From Parcubacteria group bacterium Athens0714_26 (GTDB lineage Bacteria > Patescibacteriota > Minisyncoccia > UBA6257 > 02-FULL-45-10c): 34,611 bases of DNA. The DNA is taken from positions 1 to 34,611 of the forward strand of contig VMGU01000001.1 in NCBI GenBank assembly GCA_007376745.1. Direction: 5' to 3'. The notes beneath the pieces are model-generated. The model was not told the DNA's origin and made no database searches. It saw only the letters and a program-made list of their open reading frames with translations. Each line of letters starts with the position of its first letter. Within the stretch, counting starts at the first letter, position 1. This document shows, piece after piece, positions 3,166 to 18,741 of this stretch. The position numbers were made by a program, and so were the translations under genes.

Positions 3166-3168
3166 AAA

Positions 3169-3595
3169 GTAATCGCGAATAACGCTAATTTACATTAAAT
3201 ATCGCAAATATTAATATCTGGATTTAAAACACGACGATATTTTATACCTTCTTTTGTAAAATATAACAAAATTCCCAGTTTAACGCCAGCAGATTTTAAA
3301 TATCCAAAAAGTTGTTTTACATGAACGTATCCAATAATAAAATCCGCATAATATCTGCCAATATTAATATTTTTATATTGCAAAGGAATATAGACTTCTC
3401 GTTTAAATTTTATTTTTCTCCTTTCAAACTCTTTCATTAAAGCTTTTTGATAATCTTTTTCAGATAATCCCCAGCCTAATTCATTAAATACCTCGAAAGT
3501 GGAACCAATAATTTTATAACTCAAATCAGGAAAAATTATTTTATCTTTATTTTTCATTCGCATTATTTGCTAATATTCGCGTTATTAGCGATTAC
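3169..3595 (-). mobile_element. GxxExxY-gene cassette bounded by imperfect inverted repeats built of ATTCGCG/ATTAGCG-type iterons
   Basis: The left end 3169-3190 gtaatcgcgaataacgctaatt matches the reverse complement of the right end 3569-3595 at 19/22 positions. The cassette occupies the whole ftsE-prfB intergenic space. Confidence 0.5.
3195..3563 (-). CDS. GxxExxY-family (PD-(D/E)XK fold) protein, apparently degenerate
   Basis: The GWGLSEKDY motif (GxxExxY) is present. Relative to the paralog at 13742-14155, the D..(I/V)ELK core segment is missing (YYADFIIGYVHVKQLF versus NYLDFLIDNKIILELKQG). Confidence 0.7.
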   Translation of the reverse strand: MRMKNKDKIIFPDLSYKIIGSTFEVFNELGWGLSEKDYQKALMKEFERRKIKFKREVYIPLQYKNINIGRYYADFIIGYVHVKQLFGYLKSAGVKLGILLYFTKEGIKYRRVLNPDINICDI

Positions 3596-9071: not shown

Positions 9072-10532
9072 ATGAAGAAGAGAAAGAATAAAGTCCGAGC
9101 GCGAGGTTTTTCGCTCACTGAAATTCTGATTTATGTAACCATTCTCGCGGTCGCCGGAACATTTCTAACGGGTATTGTTATAAACTCCCTTAAAGTCCAA
9201 AATCAACAAACTGCTTCACAGGAAGTTGGGCAACAGCTTAATTTTGTTCTGGAAAATATACAAAGATATATCCAAAGTTCCAGCCAGGTGGATATAGCCA
9301 CCAGCACACCTTCAACAACTCTTACCTTAAGAATGCAAGATGGCAACTTAGACCCTACTTTAATATATTTATCCGACAATAAAATTTTTCTGAAACAAGG
9401 GACGGGCGGCGCGGTGGCCATAACCAGCGATAAAATCGTTGCTAATAGTCTGAATTTTACAAAGATAGCCACTTCCGGAGGACATGATACGGTGCAAGTG
9501 GATTTAATGCTTAGCTATACCTCTCAAAGCGGCGGGTCGTCTTTTTCCAAATCATTAAGTTCGGCAATTGCCAGAGTTAACGCCGCGACTTTTGATTCAA
9601 ATTTAATTCCGGGAGCAGACAACTCCTATGATATAGGACTGACTTCTCCGAGGTGGAGGAATGGAAATTTTGCGGGTAATGTTTTGGTGAATGGCAACGT
9701 CGGCATCGGGACGACGGGGCCAAAAAGGAAACTTCAGGTTGCGGTAGATTCCACCTTCCCAACTCTCGGTATATCAAATGGACAGCTATTTCTTTCCAAT
9801 AGTGACGGGCTATGGGGAACATATTTTGGCGGAGACAATGGTACCGGAGTTGGGTGGATACAGCAGATGAGAAATGATTCAGCCACTGCTTATGCCTTGC
9901 TGTTAAATCCAGTCGGCGGCAACGTGGGCATCGGGACGACGAATCCACAATCTTCGTTGCATATTTTCAAGACTGAAGGTGGCGTTGGCACGAAAGATGC
10001 GACGATAACGCTCGGTGGATACACCACGCAGGGCGCGACTATTGCCAGCTACCGTTACGAAGGAGATAGTAATAGTAGAGGATTGATGTTTTCTACGCGC
10101 AATACTGGTGTAGGAATGGTAGATGCAATGACTATCACAGGGCCTGGCAACGTGGGCATCGGGACGACAAATCCAGGGGCTCTGCTTGATCTTGGAGCCG
10201 GTGAAAATGGAGTGTATCTTCAGAAATTCTTACTTCTTAAAACTGGAAATGCGCGTGCTGGGTGGGGTCACGGGTCTTATGAGGATAGATTATTTTTCCC
10301 ATCTGATGGACATATGTCCTTTGGGACTATATCAGTATCAGATGCTACTACTTGGTCGGAAAAGGTGCGGATTCAAAATGACGGCAACGTCGGCATCGGG
10401 ACGACAAATCCAACAAGTAAATTACAGGTTATGGGACTTTTGGAGTACGCAGACAACGCAGCGGCGACAGCCGCGGGACTTACAATAGGAGCTTTCTATA
10501 GAACCGGCGATATATTAAAAGTCGTTCACTAA
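9072..10532 (+). CDS. type IV pilin-like protein with a repeat-bearing C-terminal region (486 aa)
   Basis: Prepilin-type cleavage/methylation signal RG/FSLTEILIYVTILAV. Four GNVGIGTT(N/G)P repeats spaced about 75-79 aa apart. Confidence 0.7.
   Translation: MKKRKNKVRARGFSLTEILIYVTILAVAGTFLTGIVINSLKVQNQQTASQEVGQQLNFVLENIQRYIQSSSQVDIATSTPSTTLTLRMQDGNLDPTLIYLSDNKIFLKQGTGGAVAITSDKIVANSLNFTKIATSGGHDTVQVDLMLSYTSQSGGSSFSKSLSSAIARVNAATFDSNLIPGADNSYDIGLTSPRWRNGNFAGNVLVNGNVGIGTTGPKRKLQVAVDSTFPTLGISNGQLFLSNSDGLWGTYFGGDNGTGVGWIQQMRNDSATAYALLLNPVGGNVGIGTTNPQSSLHIFKTEGGVGTKDATITLGGYTTQGATIASYRYEGDSNSRGLMFSTRNTGVGMVDAMTITGPGNVGIGTTNPGALLDLGAGENGVYLQKFLLLKTGNARAGWGHGSYEDRLFFPSDGHMSFGTISVSDATTWSEKVRIQNDGNVGIGTTNPTSKLQVMGLLEYADNAAATAAGLTIGAFYRTGDILKVVH
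9693..10412 (+). repeat. four dispersed ~27-30 nt coding repeats ggcaacgt(c/g)ggcatcgggacgac(r)aatcca
   Basis: Copies start at 9693, 9918, 10146 and 10383. Each encodes GNVGIGTT(N/G)P. Confidence 0.85.
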
Positions 10533-13274: not shown

Positions 13275-13779
13275 TTTAATTTTTACAATCAACGATAAAA
13301 AGGAAGAAAAATTTTTAAGACGCAAAACGTCTAGTTTTAATTTCGCCAAACACAAAAAACAGGATATCAAAGATTTAATTATTAAAATGAGAAATATTAT
13401 GAAAAAGGCCAGCGGCATCGGATTAAGCGCCAACCAAATCGGACTGGATTCAAGATTTTTTATAGCAAAAGTAGAAAATAAATTTTATACGGTATTTAAT
13501 CCGGAAATAGCAAAAGAATCCAAAGAAACGGCAACGGAGGACGAAGGCTGCCTAAGCGTGCCCGATCTTTTCGGGCCGGTAGAACGGGCGGAAAAAATAA
13601 CTCTTACGGGTTCGGACGCCAATAATAAAAAAATAAAAATCAAGGCATGGGGACTTTTGTCGCGGGTTTTCCAGCACGAAATAGACCACCTGAACGGCAA
13701 ACTTTTTATCGACAAGGCCAAAACTTTACGAAAATACGAAAATGGACACGAAAATACGAAAAAGGGCAGTAGTTTATAA
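13267..13779 (+). CDS. def: peptide deformylase
   Basis: Motifs GIGLSANQIG, EGCLSVP and QHEIDHLNG are present. The C-terminal tail (LRKYENGHENTKKGSSL) is encoded by the cassette repeat. Confidence 0.9.
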   Translation: MIDLIFTINDKKEEKFLRRKTSSFNFAKHKKQDIKDLIIKMRNIMKKASGIGLSANQIGLDSRFFIAKVENKFYTVFNPEIAKESKETATEDEGCLSVPDLFGPVERAEKITLTGSDANNKKIKIKAWGLLSRVFQHEIDHLNGKLFIDKAKTLRKYENGHENTKKGSSL

Positions 13780-14190
13780 AGCCGATTTGTTATACCCCGA
13801 ACTATGCTATCGAATCATTGGCATAGTATTTGATATTTTTTATAAAGTTGGATATGGCTTCACAGAAAAACAATACGGAAAAGCTATAGAAATAGCATTA
13901 AAAGAAACGGGGCTTGATTATAAAAAAGAATTGCCAGTAAGAATAAATTATAAAAATACCTTCTTAACCACTAATTACTTAGATTTTTTAATTGACAACA
14001 AAATTATTCTTGAATTAAAACAGGGTAATTTATTTCTCAAAAAAGATATTGACCAGATATATAAATATCTTAAAATTACCAATTTAAAACTTGGCTTACT
14101 AATAAAATTTACACGGTCGGGTGTAAAATTTAAAAGAATAGTCAATATAAATTAATTTCGTATTATTCGTATGTTTTCGTATTTTCGTAA
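13726..14190 (+). mobile_element. GxxExxY-gene cassette with perfect 17-bp terminal inverted repeats (ttacgaaaatacgaaaa) and TACGAA iteron arrays
   Basis: 13726-13742 equals the reverse complement of 14174-14190. There are 4-5 TACGAA/TTCGTA units at each end. The cassette is inserted between def and fmt. Confidence 0.6.
13742..14155 (+). CDS. GxxExxY-family PD-(D/E)XK nuclease-fold protein (137 aa, apparently intact)
   Basis: GYGFTEKQY (GxxExxY), then DFLIDNKIILELK (D...ELK core), then LKLGLLIKF. Confidence 0.8.
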   Translation: MDTKIRKRAVVYKADLLYPELCYRIIGIVFDIFYKVGYGFTEKQYGKAIEIALKETGLDYKKELPVRINYKNTFLTTNYLDFLIDNKIILELKQGNLFLKKDIDQIYKYLKITNLKLGLLIKFTRSGVKFKRIVNIN

Positions 14191-17628: not shown

Positions 17629-18741
17629 ATGAAACCATCTGTTATTTTAGCTATTGAAACCAGTTGCGACGACACCTCTATCGCTTTAGTGAAATGCCAA
17701 GGCGGCATAAAAAATCCGCGTTTTGAAGTTTTAAAAAGCGTTGTTTCTTCACAAATTGCCGTACACAGACCGTTCGGCGGCGTAGTGCCAAACCTTGCCA
17801 AACGCGAACATATTAAAAATCTACCGATTATCTGGAAGCAATTCGCTAAAAGCCATCCGCCGTCAACCATCAACCAGATAGCCGTTACTGTCGGACCAGG
17901 CCTTGAACCCGCTCTTTGGACAGGAATAACTTTCGCCCAGGAACTTTCAGAAAAAATTAAAAAGCCGCTTATGGGCGTTAACCATCTGGAGGGTCATCTA
18001 TATTCCGATTTATTATCAACATCAAAAATCACAGAAATTAAGTTCCCTGCCACCGCCTTGATTGTCAGCGGCGGGCACACAATTCTTTTAAATATGAAAA
18101 ATTTAAATCATTGGACCAAACTCGGTGAAACTCTGGATGACGCGGCAGGCGAAGCCTTTGATAAAGTGGCAAAAATGCTCGGCCTTCCCTATCCCGGCGG
18201 CCCGGAAATTGATAAACTGGCGGTTAAAGGCAACCCTAACGCAATTAAATTCCCCCGCCCTCTTTTAAATCCGCAGCCAAACAAGAATAAACAAAATAAA
18301 TACAATTTCAGCTTTTCTGGCCTTAAAACTTCCGTGTTGTATTACTTACGAAAATACGAAAATAACGAAAATACGAAACAAGAAAAAAATATTCAACAAT
18401 CTGCTTTTCGTACTTTCGTACCAGTTCTTAATTTCGTAAATAAGGCCGATGTGGCCGCTTCTTTCCAACAAGCAGCAACTGATGTATTAGTTCAAAAAAC
18501 CGTCCGCGCCGCCAAGGAATTTGAATCAAAAACAATAATGCTTTCCGGCGGAGTTTCCGCCAACAAACTGCTCCGCAACACCCTAAAGCAAAAATCCGAG
18601 GAATTAAAAATAAATTTTCTGGCTCCGGAATTTGAATTTATTACCGATAATGCCGCCATGATAGCCGCCGCGGCGTATATTAATCTGCTTTCTAAAAAGA
18701 AAAAATTAAAGATAGAAGCTCGATCGGATTTAACCGTATAA
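17629..18741 (+). CDS. tsaD: tRNA N6-adenosine threonylcarbamoyltransferase TsaD
   Basis: GVNHLEGHL, SGGHT and GGVSAN motifs are present. It carries an extra segment at 18346-18440. Confidence 0.9.
   Translation: MKPSVILAIETSCDDTSIALVKCQGGIKNPRFEVLKSVVSSQIAVHRPFGGVVPNLAKREHIKNLPIIWKQFAKSHPPSTINQIAVTVGPGLEPALWTGITFAQELSEKIKKPLMGVNHLEGHLYSDLLSTSKITEIKFPATALIVSGGHTILLNMKNLNHWTKLGETLDDAAGEAFDKVAKMLGLPYPGGPEIDKLAVKGNPNAIKFPRPLLNPQPNKNKQNKYNFSFSGLKTSVLYYLRKYENNENTKQEKNIQQSAFRTFVPVLNFVNKADVAASFQQAATDVLVQKTVRAAKEFESKTIMLSGGVSANKLLRNTLKQKSEELKINFLAPEFEFITDNAAMIAAAAYINLLSKKKKLKIEARSDLTV
18346..18440 (+). mobile_element. gene-less miniature inverted-repeat insert (same TACGAA iterons as cassette 13726-14190) inside the tsaD reading frame
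   Basis: 18346-18362 is identical (17/17) to 13726-13742. 18405-18420 ttttcgtactttcgta is its inverted partner with 1 mismatch. Translated in-frame it reads LRKYENNENTKQ...AFRTFVP..NFVNK. Confidence 0.55.

Follow-up and report, generated by a model that had tools for sequence, protein, structure and literature searches.

The tsaD gene of Parcubacteria group bacterium Athens0714_26, a member of the Patescibacteriota, contains a short segment that is probably a non-autonomous palindromic word-repeat element, which belongs to the same family as the arrays that bound a GxxExxY nuclease cassette and is a form of selfish DNA resembling RPEs and REPINs. The stretch of DNA that was analyzed, here called the window, is 34,611 nt long (GCA_007376745.1, VMGU01000001.1) and is part of an assembly of 636 kb (G000) from a genome that is 85% complete. 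The features of interest are listed in Table 1.

Table 1. Positions in the window of the tsaD element, its parts, its host gene and the GxxExxY cassettes.
Feature	Position	Strand	Remarks
Second GxxExxY cassette, inverted words of the AATCGC/GCGAAT type	3166..3595	-	
GxxExxY (PD-(D/E)XK) cassette between def and fmt	13726..14190	+	Candidate autonomous partner, 4.6 kb from the tsaD element
GxxExxY gene, product of 137 aa	13742-14155	+	Flanked by inverted TACGAAA arrays, 13726-13762 and 14156-14190
tsaD CDS, 370 aa	17629..18741	+	From the ORF list; open across the insert
Word-palindrome miniature, 94 nt, TTACGAAA...TTTCGTAA	18346..18439	+	Residues 240-270/271; also in L034, with identical junctions
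Left array, four words TTACGAAAA TACGAAAA TAACGAAAA TACGAAAC	18346..18379	+	
Codons 242-270, element-derived residues KYENNENTKQEKNIQQSAFRTFVPVLNFV	18352..18438	+	From the codon alignment against the empty allele L037
Core/loop, 25 nt, AAGAAAAAAATATTCAACAATCTGC	18380..18404	+	Defines the miniature subtype "type A"
Right array TTTTCGTA CTTTCGTA, decayed word CCAGTTCTTAA, then TTTCGTAA	18405..18439	+	

The element is composed of four TACGAAA(A) words, the core and three or four TTTCGTA words. An earlier note on this DNA had described the segment as a gene-less miniature of the def-fmt cassette, and the terminal words are indeed common to both. The first 17 nt, TTACGAAAATACGAAAA (18346-18362), are identical to the left end of the cassette (13726-13742) at all 17 positions, exactly as had been claimed, and equal the reverse complement of 14174-14190. 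With up to two mismatches allowed, TTACGAAAATACGAAAA has six matches in the window as compared to 0.06 expected from shuffled sequences, which places the identity well above chance for this composition. The inverted partner, TTTTCGTACTTTCGTA (18405-18420), pairs with the left 16-mer with one mismatch and is followed by a further TTTCGTA unit at 18432-18438, again in line with the original description. Terminal inverted repeats are thereby present as arms of 16-17 nt with 1-2 mismatches, in addition to the outer TTACGAAA/TTTCGTAA, and the single strand folds into a long hairpin (RNA z = -4.45, DNA z = -3.07). The left array aligns to the left arm of the cassette except for a 3-nt indel, and the type-A core is missing from the cassette. 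A copy located between atpH and atpA in another genome (G121) agrees with the tsaD element in its left arm and in the first part of the core, CAAGAAAAAA, which indicates that the type-A subtype is dispersed rather than confined to tsaD.

The window has 12 clustered TACGAAA words, every one of which lies in the tsaD segment or at an end of the cassette, and the search for further solo copies in the genome returned only one other cluster, located just upstream of a gene start (C49:418-493). Since this 85%-complete genome contains only two gene-less copies, it is doubtful whether the family is currently active in G000. Searches of Rfam and of plasmid and phage sequences with the tsaD segment gave no matches, and the eight matches to the core 20-mer TACGAAACAAGAAAAAAATA across 185,579 species genomes were all chance occurrences in unrelated phyla.

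The genome contains other repeats as well. A hairpin-bounded element, TGCTCCGCAGTGGAATTT...AAATTCCAGTGCGAAGCA, is present in two copies (C17:11215-11342 and C17:13457-13599) with ATTTCTAA/TTGAAAAT word arrays inside, and we take this pair to represent a further family of word palindromes in G000. Segments of 145-185 nt form two families (C26:5143-5326 and C34:4110-4285; C43:2965-3135, C6:9678-9822 and C32:3803-3968); they have perfect inverted repeats of 17-24 nt at their ends and conserved interiors, and may represent structured RNAs or small mobile elements of another kind. Furthermore, a 21-nt tandem repeat (YRQAGHA YRQTGHA YRQTG) lies in frame in a 415-aa ORF (C65:6663-6730), and a 48-nt repeat, GGCAACGTSGGCATCGGGACGAC..., which occurs four times with a spacing of about 228 nt at positions 9693-10430 of the window, is probably a repeated protein domain.

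The product of the host gene matches PF00814 (1.8e-82) and scores 371 bits against TIGR03723, for which the equivalog cut-off is 296. In an alignment of 60 sequences, every invariant column is retained, including H119, H123, D340 and the GGHT motif, so that the metal- and nucleotide-binding residues of TsaD are in place, and a genome search gave a single match to the gene. The earlier claim that the frame is kept through the segment is thus correct, and it concerns the sole tsaD copy of G000. The insert reads as LRKYENNENTKQEKNIQQSAFRTFVPVLNFVNK between FSFSGLKT and DVAASFQ, and we infer from the open frame that it is carried through into the protein. The spacing from SGLKT to ASFQ is 51 aa, compared with 27 aa as the modal value in relatives of the same order (12 of 29) and in 74 of the 112 scorable sequences among the best 120 database homologs. 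In the TsaD protein of T. maritima (6N9A), five residues correspond to 29 in the query.

Alignment to orthologs thus identified the segment as an insertion, with an empty site in the nearest relative. The earlier note had placed the added loop at about 20 aa, which was right as to the insertion and the preserved frame and close as to size, the measured net gain being 24 aa (72 nt). The element-derived codons have displaced about five host residues (D-N/H-P-x-x), including Asp at position 242, which is near-invariant (56 of 60 homologs) and is replaced by Lys here. The event was therefore a replacement of about 5-7 host codons, among them that of Asp242, rather than a clean insertion. The adjacent L-R codons, TTA CGA, are the first six bases of the element and correspond to CTC CGC or CTT AAA in the nearest empty alleles. 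No direct duplication was found at the insert junctions.

An AlphaFold2 model built on 60 homologs (mean pLDDT 88.8, pTM 0.88) superposes on solved TsaD structures with TM-scores of 0.82-0.87, its fold matching 4WQ5, 6N9A and 8IEY. The insert is located between two long helices (residues 230-253 and 272-297); pLDDT falls to 72, 53 and 52 in successive blocks of residues 241-270 and is 97 directly afterward. We infer from the model that the insert extends flexibly from the tip where the two helices form a hairpin, and that the enzyme is otherwise intact. The low confidence in the insert alone and the retention of the invariant residues agree with the earlier suggestion that the repeat is tolerated as a protein loop, which the structure places as the connection between the two helices. 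A splicing or intein interpretation was dismissed because the frame is open and splicing motifs are not needed, and an assembly artifact was dismissed because the insert of the L034 type recurs in three independent assemblies.

The distribution of the insert among relatives is at odds with the tree of the gene. The nearest homolog (P0002, locus L037), with 88.7% amino acid and 85.4% nucleotide identity outside the insert, has the canonical empty loop YYLRDHPSASKKDVAASFQ, whereas the same insert with the same junctions is found in a distant homolog with 66% amino acid identity (P0004, loci L034-L036). The inserts of the window and L034 are identical at 93 of 99 nt (93.9%) as compared to 67.2% in the rest of the gene, and third codon positions are 94% identical in the insert versus 44.5% outside (binomial P = 1.4e-10); the type-A core is the same at 22 of 25 positions. 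In a tree with the loop masked, the window sequence groups with P0002 and P0004 groups with P0039, both with support 99. P0039 is without the insert. Two changes are needed on this tree, and a clade of the two carriers is rejected by the AU test (p = 0.000588). A search with the insert region among 5.8 billion proteins recovered the insert only from the two carriers, P0001 and P0004.

From these comparisons, either the element would have entered twice at the same spot, or a colonized patch would have been passed between the lineages. When the window and L034 are aligned to their sister loci, L037 and L166, the flanks hold too few informative sites for a co-conversion tract to be traced. The two tsaD copies of the element show six differences, of which five are non-synonymous and one is synonymous, and one right-hand word that is intact in L034 (CCAATTCGTAA) has decayed in the window copy. 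For these reasons both the peptide and the window hairpin look unconstrained, and the peptide appears to be neutral cargo.

The TsaD loop holds short-repeat inserts of unrelated kinds in other loci (L007, L009, L016, L017, L031, L033, L024 and L030), among them a TACGAAT palindrome, ATCAGCG in four copies, CGCGAAT words, the heptamer CTAAACC and long hairpins rich in GC. Additions occur elsewhere in the protein too: the tsaD gene of L037 (1357-2490) has an in-frame GAATTAAGAAT/ATTCATAATTC palindrome after residue ~74, and that of L034 (10001-11206) has AAATCAA tandem repeats after residue ~74 and ATTTCTAA words after residue ~134. The TACGAAA-type inserts in TsaD, representing three independent types, all lie in the same loop (5 of 5). 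Since three insertion hot spots are used to a comparable degree in TsaD, this coincidence has a chance of about 1 in 9 and is not significant, and specific targeting of the loop is unsupported.

Miniatures of this kind were found in 5 of the 151 genomes of the order. A pattern search of metagenomes, which demanded two left and two right words, identified at least 120 loci with at least 111 distinct elements. Among the matches listed, the elements measure 40-126 nt (median 76) and have TACGAA..TTCGTA ends that are often extended by C/G. No target-site duplication of 3 nt or more was found in the 109 members examined among these matches, apart from one chance case, and no conserved target motif beyond a palindromic C/G preference just outside the TACGAA..TTCGTA ends. 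Element lengths in the listed matches are uniform modulo three, with no bias toward multiples of three, and the words contain few stop codons, 2.7 of the six frames being open as compared to 0.77 in shuffled sequence. Most of the listed copies are intergenic and about 3-5 of 120 are situated in real genes, including those for ValRS (L108), UvrC (L137) and TsaD, the last of these in the same loop (L136 = P0107). The ValRS copy is in frame in a variable linker (YENTKKETRFRSFV). The UvrC copy is likewise in frame (DENTKTYESTKTGGAIFRNFVDFRTFV), and the same gene has a second, GC-rich insert.

The gene in the def-fmt cassette encodes a protein that matches PF13366 (PDDEXK_3; 1.2e-27) and TIGR04256 (97 bits, cut-off 35) and retains the GxxExxY and D..ELK motifs. 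These are its only matches, which sets it apart from the HUH tyrosine transposases of REPIN/RAYT systems. The other two GxxExxY cassettes in G000, as well as cassettes in G121, G153 and G087, are bounded by inverted words that differ from TACGAAA, which shows that every cassette carries its own word set. Cassettes with TACGAAA-type words were also found in L066 and at the def-fmt junction of G121, which belongs to another family (L182; G121:C8:495793-496637). At the end of def in L034 (3147-3330) there is a truncated remnant, consisting of the left arm and the first ~11 nuclease codons, with an unrelated hairpin, CTGTCATTGCGA...TCGCAATGACAG, after it, and in L166 the def tail looks decayed. 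To judge from these sequences, the def-fmt junction has served as a home site either repeatedly or for a very long time.

It had been suggested that the GxxExxY cassette could mobilize the miniature in trans. The shared ends and the co-occurrence in GxxExxY-rich genomes make this plausible without proving it. At least three GxxExxY genes are present in four of the five miniature-bearing genomes as compared to 14 of 151 in the order overall, a threshold that was chosen post hoc. One genome (G001) carries a miniature and no GxxExxY gene, and the miniatures are not nearer to GxxExxY genes than background (3 of 120 loci among the matches listed). Whole GxxExxY modules with word-repeat flanks were also seen in frame and free of stop codons inside large housekeeping proteins (L174-L179), namely RecG in G025, LepA in G113 and G153, SecA in G130, a glycosyltransferase in G143 and an Ndh-like protein in G158, and about 17 of roughly 95 GxxExxY matches lie in open frames longer than 450 aa. 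Hence, full cassettes appear to be translated as protein insertions, just like the miniatures.

The hypothesis that we favor is one of spread at the DNA level: the element would either insert anew at a site for which it has a preference, or travel by recombination of short patches from a colonized allele. Such a process would make use of a nuclease that recognizes the word arrays or the hairpins, for which the GxxExxY protein, acting in trans, is the obvious candidate. In an indispensable gene, selection would retain only those copies that preserve the frame, contain no stop codons and reside in tolerant loops, and the stop-poor words would make survival in frame easier.

We also considered the possibility of vertical inheritance, in which the lineages of the window and L034 both have the insert from a shared ancestor, constraint on the words has preserved it, and P0002, P0039 and most other lineages between them have lost it. 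L034 is syntenic with the window and keeps the left arm of the cassette and the first nuclease codons at the end of def, G121 has its TACGAA-word cassette at the same junction despite belonging to another family, and the def tail of L166 looks decayed. Because of these def-fmt states, long residence at fixed sites is possible. The canonical loop of P0002, RDHPSASKK, is however homologous to the loops of many relatives and could not be recreated by excision, and the non-word core is nearly identical in the two carriers although third positions outside the insert are saturated. Nor is strong constraint evident, given the mostly non-synonymous differences and the decayed word, and the carrier clade is rejected by the AU test. 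On balance, we regard vertical descent as unlikely. A benefit to the host, with selection acting on the hairpin or the 24-aa loop through mRNA processing or stability, a regulator site or a partner-binding loop, would be consistent with the strong fold (z = -4.45), the 94% identity between two lineages and the recurrent additions to this loop in many lineages. We nevertheless find it quite improbable, since the insert is found neither in the nearest relative nor in 74 of 112 homologs (of the best 120), the peptide changes freely, one pairing word has been lost in the window copy, the AlphaFold2 model gives no ordered structure and Rfam no match.

Yet another explanation is that the segment arose locally, by slipped-strand expansion in place from a host TTA CGA seed and with no involvement of a mobile element. 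The same loop does contain slippage-prone tandem runs of heptamers or decamers in other loci (CTAAACC x4 in L031, ATCAGCG x4 in L009, and L033), and the L-R codons coincide with the first word. Yet the words in the element are inverted and not in tandem, the ends equal those of the gene-bearing cassette, and the sister alleles encode L-R/K by CTC CGC or CTT AAA and not by TTACGA. The same core is found in the tsaD gene of another genome and, in part, at an intergenic site, and this sharing between unrelated sites largely refutes a local origin, which we consider very improbable indeed.

The mobile word-repeat element that we favor has properties in common with several systems described before. 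Rickettsia palindromic elements (RPE; Ogata et al., 2000) are palindromes located between genes and in frame within genes, and as outlined in PMC10969869, they resemble the present family in being short palindromes, intergenic or in frame in unrelated housekeeping genes, in adding a peptide that is compatible with the protein fold and in inhabiting small, reduced genomes. A palindrome in frame in a coding gene is what the open frame of the sole tsaD copy displays. The differences are that the phylum and the sequence are unrelated, that the tsaD element consists of reiterated words of 7-8 nt and, at 94 nt, is shorter than RPEs (about 100-150 nt), that the TACGAAA family is mostly intergenic and that it has a gene-bearing partner with the same ends, which RPEs are not known to have. 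We would thus not file the tsaD element as an RPE itself; by analogy, the likeness is one of behavior.

REP/REPIN-RAYT systems are similar in their hairpin-forming inverted doublets without target-site duplication, in a single-gene "master" flanked by the same repeats as the gene-less copies and in a repeat sequence that is specific to each gene lineage. They differ in that the gene here encodes a PD-(D/E)XK nuclease (PF13366/TIGR04256) rather than an HUH/Y1 transposase, and the TACGAAA copies number only 1-3 per genome and occur also within coding sequence. MITEs are likewise small and non-coding, have terminal inverted repeats and share their ends with a larger gene-bearing element, and they occur in multiple dispersed copies, which agrees with the two gene-less copies in G000 and the at least 111 distinct elements in the metagenomes. 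The partner whose ends equal those of the tsaD element codes for a PD-(D/E)XK nuclease, however, and codons were replaced in tsaD. The term "MITE-like" in the earlier note thus holds for a gene-less element with shared ends and not for the target-site duplication, missing in 109 copies among the matches listed, or for a transposase of a known family. It is for these reasons that we place the element closer to RPEs and REPINs than to MITEs. The same insertion point in an orthologous essential gene of divergent hosts, empty in closer relatives, is also a hallmark of homing endonuclease genes, group I introns and inteins, and, as in those systems, a small nuclease accompanies the family. Unlike them, there is no splicing element, so that the segment would stay in the mRNA and presumably in the protein, and the tsaD copy lacks a nuclease gene.

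In the literature that we searched, there was almost nothing on GxxExxY proteins and no report of such palindromic in-frame insertions in the Patescibacteria. We tentatively suggest that TACGAAA-type arrays and GxxExxY nucleases could constitute an undescribed class of homing-like mobile elements in the Patescibacteria, in which the nuclease of each lineage would recognize the hairpins of its own words, and both miniatures and entire modules, the latter as in RecG, LepA and SecA of relatives, would be carried as translated insertions in host proteins. It is also conceivable, with similar reservations, that under such a homing-like interpretation cassettes and miniatures have repeatedly occupied identical positions in indispensable genes, as at the def-fmt junction, the tip of the TsaD helix hairpin and a turn in LepA.

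Our findings suggest that the remodeling of indispensable proteins by selfish palindromes, known from Rickettsia, also takes place in ultra-small bacteria. The presence of a candidate mobilizing enzyme, unlike the situation for RPEs, would offer a concrete role for the widespread GxxExxY/PDDEXK_3 proteins of unknown function. Comparison of near and distant relatives, with their empty and filled alleles, provides a dated case of an element spreading to identical codons in an essential gene, and part of the odd length variation in the housekeeping proteins of the Patescibacteria is explained in this manner. Annotators and users of structure prediction should be aware that such segments are derived from repeats. 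If the homing-like interpretation is true, minimal genomes would continually gain new protein segments from these elements.
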